From Escherichia coli (GTDB taxonomy: Bacteria; Pseudomonadota; Gammaproteobacteria; Enterobacterales; Enterobacteriaceae), in NCBI RefSeq assembly GCF_016903815.1, contig NZ_CP069973.1: 64,000 nucleotides of DNA; one strand, 5' to 3'. Of the stretch, positions 18,636 through 23,631 are shown piece by piece. The translations under genes were made by a program, and so were the position numbers. The notes below the pieces were generated by a model. The model saw only the letters and a program-made list of their open reading frames with translations. It did not search any database and had not been told where the DNA came from. How positions within the stretch are numbered: the first letter of the stretch is position 1; every line of letters begins with the position of its first letter.

Positions 18636-19436
18636 ATGTACCAGGTTGTTGCGTCTGATTTAGATGGCACGTTACTTTCTCCCGACCATACGTTATCCCC
18701 TTACGCCAAAGAAACTCTGAAGCTGCTCACCGCGCGCGGCATCAACTTTGTGTTTGCGACCGGTCGTCACCACGTTGATGTGGGGCAAATTCGCGATAAT
18801 CTGGAGATTAAGTCTTACATGATTACCTCCAATGGCGCGCGCGTTCACGATCTGGATGGCAATCTGATTTTTGCTCATAACCTGGATCGCGACATTGCCA
18901 GCGATCTGTTTGGCGTAGTCAACGACAATCCGGACATCATTACTAACGTTTATCGCGACGACGAATGGTTTATGAATCGCCATCGCCCAGAAGAGATGCG
19001 CTTTTTTAAAGAAGCGGTGTTCAAATATGCGCTGTATGAGCCTGGATTACTGGAGCCGGAAGGCGTCAGCAAAGTGTTCTTCACCTGCGATTCCCATGAA
19101 CAACTGCTGCCGCTGGAGCAGGCGATTAACGCTCGCTGGGGCGATCGCGTCAACGTCAGTTTCTCTACCTTAACCTGTCTGGAAGTGATGGCGGGCGGCG
19201 TGTCGAAAGGCCATGCGTTGGAAGCAGTGGCGAAGAAACTGGGCTACAGCCTGAAGGATTGTATTGCCTTTGGTGACGGGATGAACGACGCCGAAATGCT
19301 GTCGATGGCGGGGAAAGGCTGCATTATGGGCAGTGCGCACCAGCGTCTGAAAGATCTGCATCCGGAGCTGGAAGTGATTGGTACTAATGCCGACGACGCG
19401 GTGCCGCATTATCTGCGTAAGCTCTATTTATCGTAA
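18636..19436 (+). CDS. yigL: HAD-family sugar phosphatase YigL (Cof-type)
   Basis: 266 aa from ATG at 18636; HAD motif I SDLDGTLL. Confidence 0.85.
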   Translation: MYQVVASDLDGTLLSPDHTLSPYAKETLKLLTARGINFVFATGRHHVDVGQIRDNLEIKSYMITSNGARVHDLDGNLIFAHNLDRDIASDLFGVVNDNPDIITNVYRDDEWFMNRHRPEEMRFFKEAVFKYALYEPGLLEPEGVSKVFFTCDSHEQLLPLEQAINARWGDRVNVSFSTLTCLEVMAGGVSKGHALEAVAKKLGYSLKDCIAFGDGMNDAEMLSMAGKGCIMGSAHQRLKDLHPELEVIGTNADDAVPHYLRKLYLS

Positions 19437-19511
19437 TCGTTCTTTATTTGGCCAGTTGTCAACCTGATACTTCGCTACAATGGATACTCGTTAATCAAAG
19501 AGTTTTCCATT

Positions 19512-20411
19512 GTGGCGCTACTTATCATCACCACGATTCTGTGGGCCTTCTCCTTTAGCTTTTATGGCGAGTACCTTGCGGGGCACGTCGATAGCTATTT
19601 TGCGGTGCTGGTGCGCGTTGGCCTGGCGGCACTCGTTTTTTTGCCGTTTCTGCGTACCCGTGGCAATAGCCTGAAAACGGTCGGCCTGTATATGCTGGTG
19701 GGCGCGATGCAGCTCGGCGTGATGTATATGCTGAGTTTTCGCGCCTATCTCTACCTGACGGTCTCCGAATTGTTGCTGTTCACCGTACTGACGCCGCTCT
19801 ACATTACGTTGATTTATGACATCATGAGTAAGCGCCGTCTGCGCTGGGGCTATGCTTTTAGCGCCTTGTTGGCGGTGATTGGTGCCGGGATTATTCGCTA
19901 TGATCAGGTCACCGACCACTTCTGGATTGGCCTGCTGCTGGTGCAGCTCTCCAATATCACTTTTGCCATCGGCATGGTGGGTTACAAACGTCTGATGGAA
20001 ACTCGCCCGATGCCGCAGCATAACGCCTTTGCGTGGTTCTATCTTGGCGCGTTCCTGGTGGCGGTGATTGCATGGTTCTTGCTGGGAAATGCGCAGAAAA
20101 TGCCACAAACCACGTTGCAATGGGGCATTCTGGTGTTTCTTGGCGTGGTGGCTTCCGGGATTGGCTACTTTATGTGGAACTACGGCGCAACCCAAGTAGA
20201 CGCCGGAACGCTGGGTATTATGAATAATATGCACGTTCCGGCAGGGCTGCTGGTAAACCTGGCTATCTGGCACCAACAGCCGCACTGGCCAACGTTCATT
20301 ACAGGCGCGCTGGTGATCCTGGCCTCACTGTGGGTGCATCGTAAGTGGGTCGCTCCGCGCTCTTCACAAACGGCAGATGATCGCAGGCGTGATTGCGCGC
20401 TGAGCGAATAA
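19512..20411 (+). CDS. yigM: DMT-family transporter YigM (biotin transporter BioP)
   Basis: 299 aa, ten TM helices, GTG start; 3' end overlaps the 3' end of convergent metR. Confidence 0.8.
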
Positions 20412-21252
20412 ACGCTTCAGTAATCGGCTGACGCTGCTCGCCATCGCGCACGGCGGCGTACAGTCGGCTCCACAAGCCTTCGCCCAGGGTTTTGGTCACC
20501 ACCAGACCCTGGCGCTCAAAACTCTCTACTACCCAATGCGGCAGGGCGGCAATACCCATCCGCGCGGCAACCATCTGAATCAACAATAAGGTGTTATCGA
20601 CGCTTTTCAGTGACGGGCTGACGCCTGCCGGCTGAAGAAAATGCCGCCAGACATCCAGTCGGCTACGCTGCACCGGATAAATCAACAGCGTCTCGCTGGC
20701 GAGATCTTCCGGTGTAATACGCGTTTTTGCCGCCAGCGGATGGTCAGGTGCCAACACCAGACGCACTTCATAATCGAACATCGGCGAATAATGCAGGCCA
20801 CTGCGCGGCAGAATATCTGACGTCATCACCAGATCCAGCTCGCCCTGTTGCAACGCAGGCTGCGGGTCAAACGTCACGCCCGATTTAAAGTCCATCTCGA
20901 CCTGCGGCCAGTTCTTATGGAAATTTTCTAACGCGGGCGTCAGCCACTGAATACAGCTATGGCACTCAATGGCGATGCGCAGACGCGTCTGCTGCGGTTC
21001 ATTGCAGGCTTGCAGTGCCTGGCTAATTTGTGGCAGCACCTGGTTTGCCAGTTGCAACAGGATTTCTCCCTGCGGTGTAAAGCGAAGCGGCTGGCTCTTA
21101 CGCACAAATAGCCGGAAGCCAAGGCGTTGTTCCAGATCGCTAAACTGGTGAGACAGGGCGGATTGCGTCTGATGCAACGTCGCCGCAGCGGCTGCGAGCG
21201 AGCCGCAGTTCCGCAACGCTTGTAGCGTTTTCAGATGTTTTACTTCGATCAT
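20299..21252 (-). CDS. metR: LysR-type transcriptional regulator MetR
   Basis: 317 aa with N-terminal HTH; divergent from metE. Confidence 0.9.
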
Positions 21253-21369
21253 GAAAGTCCTTCACTTCGGCATGAATAATTTGCGCTTGAGGAATATACA
21301 GTAACCGCCAATTATGGATGTGTAAACATCTGGACGGCTAAATACTAAAAATTCCATAAGGGGCATATA

Positions 21370-23631
21370 ATGACAATTCTTAATCACACCCTCGGTTTCC
21401 CTCGCGTTGGCCTGCGTCGCGAGCTGAAAAAAGCGCAAGAGAGTTATTGGGCGGGGAACTCCACGCGTGAAGAACTGCTGGCGGTAGGGCGTGAATTGCG
21501 TGCTCGTCACTGGGATCAACAAAAGCAAGCGGGTATCGACCTGCTGCCGGTGGGCGATTTTGCCTGGTACGATCATGTACTGACCACCAGTCTGCTGCTG
21601 GGTAACGTTCCGGCGCGTCATCAGAACAAAGATGGTTCGGTAGATATCGACACCCTGTTCCGTATTGGTCGTGGACGTGCGCCGACTGGCGAACCTGCGG
21701 CGGCAGCGGAAATGACCAAATGGTTTAATACCAACTATCACTACATGGTGCCGGAATTCGTTAAAGGCCAACAGTTCAAACTGACCTGGACGCAGCTGCT
21801 GGACGAAGTGGACGAGGCGCTGGCGCTGGGCCACAAGGTGAAACCTGTGCTGCTGGGGCCGGTTACCTACCTGTGGCTGGGTAAAGTGAAAGGTGAACAG
21901 TTTGATCGCCTGAGCCTGCTGAACGACATTCTTCCGATTTATCAGCAAGTGCTGGCAGAACTGGCAAAACGCGGCATTGAGTGGGTACAGATTGATGAAC
22001 CCGCGCTGGTACTGGAACTGCCGCAGGCGTGGCTGGACACATACAAACCCGCTTACGACGCGCTCCAGGGACAGGTGAAACTGCTGCTGACCACCTATTT
22101 TGAAGGCGTAACGCCAAATCTCGACACGATTACTGCGCTGCCTGTTCAGGGTCTGCATGTCGATCTTGTACATGGTAAAGATGACGTTGCTGAACTGCAC
22201 AAGCGTCTGCCTTCTGACTGGCTGCTGTCTGCGGGTCTGATCAATGGTCGTAACGTCTGGCGCGCCGATCTTACCGAGAAGTATGCGCAAATTAAGGACA
22301 TTGTCGGCAAACGCGATTTGTGGGTGGCATCTTCCTGCTCACTGCTGCACAGCCCCATCGACCTGAGCGTGGAAACGCGTCTTGATGCAGAAGTGAAAAG
22401 CTGGTTTGCCTTCGCCCTGCAAAAATGTCATGAACTGGCACTGCTGCGCGATGCGCTGAACAGTGGTGACACGGCTGCTCTGGCAGAGTGGAGCGCTCCG
22501 ATTCAGGCGCGTCGTCACTCTACTCGTGTTCATAATCCGGCAGTAGAAAAGCGTCTGGCGGCGATCACCGCCCAGGACAGTCAGCGTGCGAATGTCTATG
22601 AAGTGCGTGCTGAAGCCCAGCGTGCGCGTTTTAAACTGCCCGCGTGGCCGACCACCACGATTGGTTCCTTCCCGCAAACCACGGAGATTCGTACCCTGCG
22701 TCTGGATTTTAAAAAGGGTAATCTCGACGCCAATAACTACCGCACGGGCATTGCGGAACATATCAAGCAGGCCATTGTTGAGCAGGAACGTTTGGGACTG
22801 GATGTGCTGGTACATGGCGAGGCTGAGCGTAATGACATGGTGGAATACTTTGGCGAGCACCTCGACGGTTTTGTCTTTACGCAAAACGGTTGGGTACAGA
22901 GCTACGGTTCACGCTGCGTGAAGCCACCGATTGTTATTGGTGACGTTAGCCGCCCGGCACCGATTACCGTTGAGTGGGCGAAGTATGCGCAATCCCTGAC
23001 TGATAAACCGGTGAAAGGGATGTTGACCGGCCCGGTGACTATTCTCTGCTGGTCGTTCCCGCGTGAAGATGTCAGCCGTGAAACCATCGCCAAACAAATT
23101 GCGCTGGCGCTGCGTGATGAAGTGGCGGACCTGGAAGCCGCTGGAATTGGCATCATCCAGATTGATGAACCGGCACTGCGCGAAGGTTTACCGCTGCGTC
23201 GCGGCGACTGGGATGCCTATCTCCAGTGGGGCGTGGAGGCTTTCCGTATCAACGCCGCCGTGGCGAAAGATGACACACAAATCCACACTCACATGTGTTA
23301 CTGCGAGTTCAACGACATCATGGATTCGATTGCGGCGCTGGACGCAGACGTCATCACCATCGAAACCTCGCGTTCCGACATGGAGTTGCTGGAGTCGTTT
23401 GAAGAGTTTGATTATCCAAATGAAATCGGTCCTGGCGTCTATGACATTCACTCGCCAAACGTACCGAGCGTAGAATGGATTGAAGCCTTGCTGAAGAAAG
23501 CGGCAAAACGCATTCCGGCAGAGCGTCTGTGGGTCAACCCGGACTGTGGCCTGAAAACGCGCGGCTGGCCAGAAACCCGCGCGGCACTGGCGAACATGGT
23601 GCAGGCGGCGCAGAATTTGCGTCGGGGATGA
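21370..23631 (+). CDS. metE: cobalamin-independent methionine synthase
   Basis: 753 aa [22 protein letters not shown]...; matches remembered MetE. Confidence 0.95.

Follow-up and report, generated by a model that had tools for sequence, protein, structure and literature searches.

Long convergent overlaps and related arrangements

Pallejà et al. (2008; PMC2478687) concluded that gene overlaps of more than 60 bp may be genuine only where the two genes converge. Most annotated overlaps of this length were mispredictions, with 124 of 178 long convergent ones put down to 3' extensions, and the 54 real candidates found in 338 genomes were mostly conserved only among very close species. Long conserved convergent overlaps in prokaryotes are also credited to Rogozin et al. 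(2002), as cited in that paper (PMC2478687). The bioP (yigM)-metR pair of Escherichia coli resembles these in being tail-to-tail, in sharing more than 60 bp, and in consisting of well-characterised genes whose lengths are both conserved among orthologues. It differs from most of the real cases in being kept across the Enterobacteriaceae and most Yersiniaceae, beyond very close species, and is absent by gene name or b-number from the supplementary lists of Pallejà et al. The pair belongs to a rare class, that of long convergent overlaps, and is an unusually widely conserved member of it.

The overlap is already in the literature, as are its functional consequence and the overlapping transcription. 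Côté et al. (2016; mBio, PMC5120140) remarked on it in connection with a metR deletion that is synthetically lethal with bioA and sensitive to a BioA inhibitor; both effects were ascribed to concurrent disruption of yigM, and the Keio metR deletion abolishes YigM-dependent biotin uptake. In ExcludonFinder (2025; PMC12288877), bioP-metR is one of the 165 convergent pairs whose transcription overlaps in no fewer than half of 58 MG1655 RNA-seq samples. The arrangement described here has the same genes, the same 113 nt and the same relative coordinates as the published E. coli K-12 one, annotated in RefSeq and EcoCyc, with nothing different in kind. A site-by-site map of constraint and a phylogenetic distribution were not found in the published accounts consulted, and are added here.

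Two other kinds of system are close enough to compare. As in excludons, bioP and metR have overlapping transcripts, and ExcludonFinder counts them as a convergent excludon in E. coli MG1655 (PMC12288877). In classical excludons, however, the overlap involves long UTRs and the mutually exclusive expression of functionally opposed genes, whereas here it lies within the coding sequences and reciprocal regulation would be hypothetical. The second comparison is with the stem-loops lacking a U-tract that protect Rho-dependent transcript ends, described by Dar and Sorek (2018; PMC6061677). bioP likewise has a stable, conserved stem-loop without a U-tract after its stop codon, as well as a reported Rho region, but its stem-loop is a candidate predicted from sequence, and sits in the partner's coding sequence rather than in an intergenic region.

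The gene pair

The window analysed is a stretch of 64,000 nt from E. coli contig NZ_CP069973.1. Three features define the arrangement:

19512..20411, + strand: bioP (yigM) coding sequence, EamA/DMT-family biotin transporter (ORF list, Pfam/TIGR matches, RefSeq)
20299..21252, - strand: metR coding sequence, LysR-type regulator (ORF list, NF011950, PDB 5fo5/4ab5, RefSeq)
20299..20411, both strands: convergent coding overlap, 113 nt (ORF list, sequence, geometry in 52 genomes)

According to the ORF list and the raw sequence, bioP runs for 299 codons from a GTG start to a TAA stop at 20409-20411, and metR for 317 codons from an ATG at 21252-21250 to a TAA at 20301-20299. In each gene, the tail-to-tail stretch that they share takes in the stop codon, the 36 codons before it and 2 nt of the codon preceding those. 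The phase sets first codon positions of YigM opposite first positions of MetR, second opposite third, and third opposite second, so that a synonymous change in one gene always alters the second codon position of its partner.

A sequence-only reading had named the genes as yigM (bioP) and metR and had given their strands, their coordinates and an overlap of about 113 nt, all of it correct by the ORFs, profile matches and RefSeq annotation. YigM matches EamA (PF00892) and TIGR00950 (309.6 bits, against a cut-off of 230.2); the latter match and an AlphaFold model identify it as a protein of the ten-helix EamA-type fold and an orthologue of E. coli YigM, for which a function in biotin transport is published (PMC5120140, PMC10038027). 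The window protein is 99.7% identical to the copy in the K-12 derivative BW25113, the Keio strain. MetR matches the NCBIfam MetR equivalog model NF011950 along its full length, residues 1-317 (741 bits; the cut-off is 382), as well as the HTH_1 and LysR_substrate domains, and is a LysR-type MetR by these matches. Among PDB structures, 5fo5 is residues 1-92 of E. coli MetR itself and 4ab5 is the regulatory domain of a Neisseria MetR, which could be aligned to residues 87-296 of the E. coli protein and no further. Homologues number in the thousands.

RefSeq gives identical coordinates and the same 113-nt overlap in E. coli 7/2, which is 100% identical over window positions 19400-21400, and annotates the overlap likewise in a Keio-collection derivative and in MG1655 (bioP 4011076-4011975, metR 4011863-4012816). 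Of 5426 complete E. coli genomes, 5423 carry the locus at a coverage of at least 80%. Relative to K-12, the window strain shows a few percent sequence divergence, and its metR-metE spacer lacks a repeat element of about 120 nt.

In the Keio design, each deletion keeps the start codon, the last six codons and the stop codon of its target. The metR deletion would presumably remove window positions 20320-21249, so that YigM breaks off near residue 269, midway through transmembrane helix 10. A cut within this helix explains the biotin-uptake phenotype.

Distribution among relatives

A scan with a YigM alignment, at one genome per species, gave the 80 closest loci, from three Enterobacterales families; in each, both genes were translated from the start to the first stop. 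Protein lengths and spacing were as follows:

All sampled Enterobacteriaceae genera: YigM 299 aa, MetR 317 or 318 aa, overlap 113 or 116 nt
Yersinia: YigM 299 aa, MetR 317 aa, overlap 113 nt
Chimaeribacter and Rouxiella: YigM 299 aa, MetR 318 aa, overlap 116 nt
Rahnella: YigM 299 aa, MetR 311 aa, overlap 95 nt
Biostraticola: YigM 291 aa, MetR 311 aa, overlap 71 nt
Serratia: YigM 286-287 aa, MetR 316 aa, no overlap, gap of 4-36 nt
Pantoea and Erwinia: YigM 286-291 aa, MetR 308-319 aa, no overlap, genes 529-1179 nt apart

The Enterobacteriaceae sampled were Escherichia, Salmonella, Citrobacter, Klebsiella, Enterobacter, Kosakonia, Cedecea, Buttiauxella, Mangrovibacter and others. Across the 80 loci, the identical 113-nt geometry was found in 52 species-level genomes, with variants of 116, 95 and 71 nt in others; most Yersiniaceae have an overlap of 71-116 nt, and Serratia has none. 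The gap in one Serratia contains a GC-rich hairpin, and in both Pantoea loci examined there is an ORF of 159 aa between yigM and metR. In the genomes without overlap, YigM stops a few residues past a W-V-(A/V)-(P/G) sequence, and in MetR a short tail of variable sequence comes after a retained A-R-P (L-Q-P in P. agglomerans). Further afield, YigM homologues of 51% identity or less are not adjacent to metR, and are therefore uninformative on the origin of the overlap.

The survey bears directly on whether the overlap might be an artefact of annotation or sequencing, in which one of the ORFs is read on beyond the real end of its protein. Long overlaps in annotations usually arise in this way, as the misprediction and 3'-extension counts of Pallejà et al. 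cited above attest (PMC2478687), and in the present pair both Pfam domains do end before the partner's domain begins. Against it, the overlap is at the 3' ends, so it is independent of any start-codon call, and the stops are unambiguous. The same stops recur throughout E. coli (5423 of 5426 genomes, as above) and across dozens of genera. Taken at their minimum, the conserved cores of YigM and MetR still extend 59 nt and 65 nt, respectively, into the partner ORF, and deletion of metR destroys YigM function (PMC5120140). An artefact is rejected on the conservation data, and is scarcely credible. Both stops had been singled out for checking by homology, and the recurring geometry bears them out; a conserved YigM C-terminus ending before 20299, which would have told against the overlap, was looked for, and the conserved core instead runs to about residue 280-282 (nt 20351-20357).

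Constraint along the overlap

Entropy per site was calculated from an ungapped alignment of the 52 species-level genomes that share the 113-nt geometry. The overlap divides into three parts:

20299..20346: part A, residues 263-278 of the YigM core (the latter half of TM10, and H-R-K) over residues 303-317 and the stop of MetR, its variable tail
20347..20357, both strands: junction, YigM W279-V280-A281-P282 over MetR A299-E300-R301-P302
20358..20411: part B, MetR core (residues 281-298) over the YigM C-terminal tail (residues 283-299 and stop)

Within part A (20302-20346), YigM third positions have a mean of 1.04 bits, compared to 1.11 where yigM does not overlap metR (p=0.87). In the MetR frame these sites are second positions, for which the figure elsewhere in metR is 0.10 bits (p=8e-15). 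On this alignment, YigM is constrained here and MetR residues 303-317 vary freely. The situation is reversed in part B (20358-20408), where MetR third positions have 0.80 bits, compared to 1.03 in the metR-only region (p=0.10), and these are YigM second positions, which have 0.16 bits elsewhere in yigM (p=6e-10). By the same measure MetR is constrained in part B and YigM residues 283-299 vary freely, with the exception of a few tail sites. As judged from site entropy, both frames are clearly constrained only in the 11-nt junction, whose three codon positions have mean entropies of 0.05-0.11 bits, and at a few scattered sites; elsewhere one frame dominates. The two genes had been said to constrain each other's evolution. 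This holds, more narrowly than such wording implies, for 20347-20357 and for a handful of frozen synonymous sites in metR considered below, but over most of the overlap only one frame is visibly under purifying selection.

The protein data divide the two products at nearly the same points. The AlphaFold model of YigM has a pLDDT of 83.6, with TM10 at residues 259-280 and no helix beyond 280; residues 283-299 have a pLDDT below 50, and this 17-residue tail is predicted to be disordered. Distant YigM homologues align only to about residue 270-285. Natural truncations of 284 and 285 aa form clusters of 42 and 66 sequences, the 285-aa form being found in Salmonella, and the tail is missing in Serratia, Pantoea and Erwinia. 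It looks dispensable. In MetR, the last alignment column conserved at 90% or more is P302, with none beyond it, and the tail ranges from about 6 to 17 residues where it is unconstrained. Its structure prediction (pLDDT 43.6) was too poor to judge whether the tail is disordered.

These results weigh against the possibility that both tails are functional parts of their proteins and the whole segment is truly dual-coding, selected in both frames throughout. Mean variability at the second codon positions of the tails equals the synonymous background, at 5 to 10 times the level of second codon positions in the gene cores, and neither a YigM tail that is predicted to be disordered and is missing from non-overlapping relatives and from the 284-285 aa variants, including those of Salmonella, nor a MetR tail of such elastic length would be expected under it. 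In its favor are the extreme stability of the 299 and 317 aa lengths and a small number of conserved tail sites, which are taken up in turn.

Stop codons and constant length

The YigM stop, TAA at 20409-20411, is the antisense of MetR Phe281-Ile282 (TTT ATT). The MetR stop is likewise the antisense of YigM Ile263 (ATT or ATC, giving TAA or TGA) together with the A that starts codon 264. How far such constraints determine tail length was simulated by resampling the synonymous codons of the partner while its protein sequence was held fixed. In 59% of these recodings, the first stop in the YigM frame came after exactly 17 open codons beyond P282, and it never came later; the MetR frame remained open for 15 codons past P302 in 58%, with a maximum of 16. 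The observed tail lengths are the commonest outcome in each case, and are at or within one codon of the maximum.

With both stops fixed by conserved residues of the partner, the constant 113 nt is largely a by-product of selection on the cores. The 299 and 317 aa lengths and the 113-nt overlap are largely what would be expected once the cores abut in this phase, with no need for selection on the tails or on the overlap. Length stability, since it is reproduced by a simulation without selection on the tails, does not favor dual coding.

Frozen synonymous sites

A few sites do not follow the general pattern. Inside 20358-20411, hardly any third-position variation is seen in MetR I282 or in the two-fold MetR codons F281, H288, C290 and F295. 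Entropy in these four two-fold codons is 0-0.24 bits, compared to a mean of 0.76 in 33 control two-fold codons elsewhere in metR (p=0.002). Codon counts in 66-67 overlapping and 11 non-overlapping genomes were as follows:

MetR F281: overlapping TTT 66/66; non-overlapping TTT 11/11
MetR I282: overlapping ATT 65/66; non-overlapping ATC 6, ATT 1, GTG (Val) 4
MetR H288: overlapping CAC 60/66; non-overlapping CAC 7, CAT 4
MetR C290: overlapping TGC 64/65; non-overlapping TGC 7, TGT 4
MetR F295: overlapping TTT 63/65; non-overlapping TTT 6, TTC 5

The third positions of I282, H288, C290 and F295 are thus nearly frozen in overlapping genomes only, and F281 is TTT in both groups. A transition at one of these sites would alter YigM Q286, R291, R293 or E299. 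The YigM tail is therefore not a pure passenger: a few of its residues do appear to be selected, and they constrain metR in turn. In the reverse direction, YigM codons V268 and L270, opposite MetR S313 and P311, show almost no variation at their third positions, and a similar K-P-L-S/A motif persists in the MetR tail of Serratia, where there is no overlap. Across part A as a whole, the third positions of YigM show no reduction in variability relative to the rest of yigM.

In favor of dual coding are thus MetR synonymous sites opposite YigM Q286, R291, R293 and E299 that are frozen only where the genes overlap, and a MetR tail in which P311 and S313 are conserved. Set against the background-level variability of the tails as a whole, selection in both frames throughout the segment nonetheless seems unlikely. 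Low-constraint tails with a few selected residues, read antisense to the partner's core, are the preferred reading of the segment.

Transcript ends and RNA structures

Three features around the overlap are relevant to how the transcripts end:

20140, + strand: peak of a Rho-dependent termination region (Adams et al., 2021; converted via the MG1655 annotation; coarse, from 800-nt scoring windows)
20424..20467, + strand: 16-bp stem-loop, candidate protective 3' structure of the bioP transcript (RNAalifold consensus)
20202..20242: perfect 9-bp inverted repeat, GCCGGAACG / CGTTCCGGC, inside bioP and 57 nt downstream of the metR stop

A scan of 19000-22000 found no intrinsic terminator downstream of either stop; two matches lie further inside metR, and are no more numerous than in shuffled sequence. 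No bidirectional intrinsic terminator, in the form of a GC hairpin with an A-tract and U-tract, was found between or at the stops, and 19000-22000 has no match to an Rfam family. The inverted repeat at 20202-20242 was considered as a metR terminator and rejected: it is perfect only in this E. coli sequence and interrupted in other genera, and over 51 genomes its variable stem positions are uncompensated (covariation term -0.32).

For the + strand, supplementary file 2 of Adams et al. (2021) gives a Rho-dependent termination region with its peak at MG1655 4011704 (Rho score 5.07, p = 1.3e-12). At its 800-nt resolution, this peak (~20140) is upstream of the overlap. It is the only entry for the pair in that study, and a coarse one; neither the curated Term-seq tables searched nor the SMRT-Cappable-seq supplements have others, the former containing no discrete 3' ends for bioP or metR.

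The stem-loop at 20424-20467 starts 13 nt past the bioP stop, within metR codons of the opposite strand, and has no U-tract. Over 50 distinct sequences, 95.8% of its stem cells are paired, a value reached by none of 500 shuffles and compared to 24-44% in slid controls; the sequences are related and the sites also encode MetR, and it is on these that the covariation rests. Its non-Watson-Crick cells are nearly all G·U on the + strand, with pairing of 95.8% on that strand vs 84.0% on the - strand. Folded as a single sequence, 20409-20540 has z = -4.25. The structure fits the protective model of Dar and Sorek (2018; PMC6061677), and is put forward as a candidate.

That each mRNA is antisense to the 3' end of its partner, as first proposed for this stretch, follows from the coding geometry and agrees with the published RNA-seq listing (PMC12288877). 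It could be supposed from this that the pair is a working excludon, in which polymerase collision or RNase III acting on a duplex of at least 113 nt gives mutual repression of bioP and metR and so ties the uptake of biotin to methionine/SAM regulation. Conservation in two bacterial families, the lack of a terminator between the genes and the consumption of SAM in biotin synthesis would all suit such a role. The same might seem true of the ExcludonFinder entry, which puts the pair in the E. coli "excludome" on detection in half or more of the 58 samples (PMC12288877), but any overlapping pair of coding sequences must score as an excludon by the ExcludonFinder method, so that the listing adds no functional evidence. 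The constant length has its explanation in stop codons that conserved residues of the partner hold in place, Rho limits read-through on the + strand, and no anticorrelated expression of bioP and metR was found in the literature. The case is weakened further by two independent losses of the overlap, in Serratia and in the Erwiniaceae, with both genes kept adjacent. There is no evidence for a regulatory role of the overlap itself, and a working excludon is considered very unlikely.

Origin and maintenance

The most probable explanation, held with high confidence, is that of a genuine and old convergent overlap between two unrelated, functional genes, in which low-constraint tails are read antisense to the partner's core as far as stops that the partner fixes, and in which termination is Rho-dependent rather than intrinsic. 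The conserved cores abut on opposite strands, with YigM ...W-V-A-P and MetR ...A-E-R-P sharing about 11 nt (20347-20357). Past this junction, each frame continues through the antisense of the partner's core to the first stop, yielding a disordered YigM tail of 17 residues and a variable MetR tail of 15. The arrangement has neither intergenic space nor an intrinsic terminator, so the mRNAs are complementary over at least 113 nt. Going by the published data, at their coarse resolution, Rho would end bioP transcription within or beyond the 3' part of bioP, and the transcript is probably trimmed back to the stem-loop at 20424-20467.

The reading of its origin is based on the family relationships of the Enterobacteriaceae, Yersiniaceae and Erwiniaceae. 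The arrangement most likely arose once, before the Enterobacteriaceae and Yersiniaceae diverged, and would have been lost later in Serratia, via a short spacer containing a hairpin, and in the Erwiniaceae, via an inserted gene. The Serratia YigM core still ends in W-V-A-P, the sequence dictated by MetR E-R-P in overlapping genomes. A single origin with later losses is the most economical history; its direction is one that we infer, given the negative outcome of a test for tandem duplication of the overlap as the source of the Serratia arrangement, a candidate that was rejected. In this test, DNA alignments between the Serratia MetR-tail region and antisense yigM TM10 scored at or below the shuffle means.

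The overlap could also be more than a frozen accident. The stem-loop at 20424-20467, which pairs well only in the + strand RNA, and the MetR sites frozen only in overlapping genomes both point in this direction, and the obligatory RNA duplex could link biotin uptake to the methionine/SAM regulon. This is quite improbable. If true, the last 60-odd codons of metR would encode three things at once: MetR itself, the tail and stop of YigM, and an element at the 3' end of the bioP mRNA.

Overall, the finding is an ordinary one, which opens no new question, and its practical consequences are established but limited. A deletion or insertion in the 3' end of either metR or bioP damages both genes, and misleading phenotypes in screens of the Keio collection have already resulted (PMC5120140). 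As a case study, the pair cleanly illustrates how an extended convergent overlap can be maintained over very long periods although the overlap as such is not selected for, given cores that abut, tails that ride on the antisense of the partner, and stops that the partner fixes.

Stem-loop, inverted repeat and frozen codon positions at the bioP and metR 3' ends

A stem-loop and an inverted repeat lie in or near the 113-nt overlap (20299-20411) between the 3' ends of bioP (yigM) and metR, on opposite strands:

20424-20467, plus strand: conserved 16-bp stem-loop without a U-tract, just 3' of the bioP stop codon and within metR codons of the opposite strand
20350-20360 / 20397-20407: 11-nt inverted repeat, 91% complementary, arms 36 nt apart, wholly within the overlap

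Pairing in the stem-loop is higher on the plus strand than on the minus strand (95.8% vs. 84.0%), and its wobble pairs function only in plus-strand RNA.

Across 52 genomes, five third-codon positions of MetR (20368, 20383, 20389, 20407, and 20410) are frozen. Four of the five are variable in genomes that lack the overlap; that of F281 (TTT, at 20410), opposite the bioP stop codon, is frozen in overlapping and non-overlapping genomes alike.

The 299-aa YigM cluster representative (P0123) has an internal stretch matching an alternative-frame ORF at 20033-20227, a match that most likely reflects a double frameshift or erroneous sequencing in the assembly from which it derives.

Other bioP-metR arrangements

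Different arrangements were seen in several loci. In a single genome, E. coli Z135-6 (NZ_CP159632.1, 2010978-2016056), bioP and metR are both truncated pseudogenes, and the interval separating them holds a 636-nt ORF annotated as a "hypothetical protein"; the entire overlap has thereby been removed by natural replacement. Both Pantoea loci examined have a 159-aa ORF between yigM and metR, on the metR strand (L074, 4189-4668; L081, 3858-4337), which in L081 overlaps the yigM stop codon by 4 nt. The Serratia quinivorans locus (L068, 3849-3891) has a 33-nt yigM/metR spacer with a GC-rich hairpin (GGGCTGCC...GGCAGCCC), which from its sequence looks like a terminator because a T-rich run flanks it on the metR-strand side.

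The metR-metE intergenic region

On the other side of metR, the spacer to metE is 117 nt here (21253-21369) vs. 236 nt in K-12, where an additional block of ~120 nt with an internal palindrome is present (MG1655 locus L084, 2908-3030). This block, which resembles an ERIC/IRU element, is a dispersed repeat: a search of 5,426 genomes gave a median of three copies per genome and a maximum of nine, with a copy of at least 99% identity in 2095 of 4690 matching records. Since the block is located in the metE leader/regulatory region, it could influence control of metE or metR.
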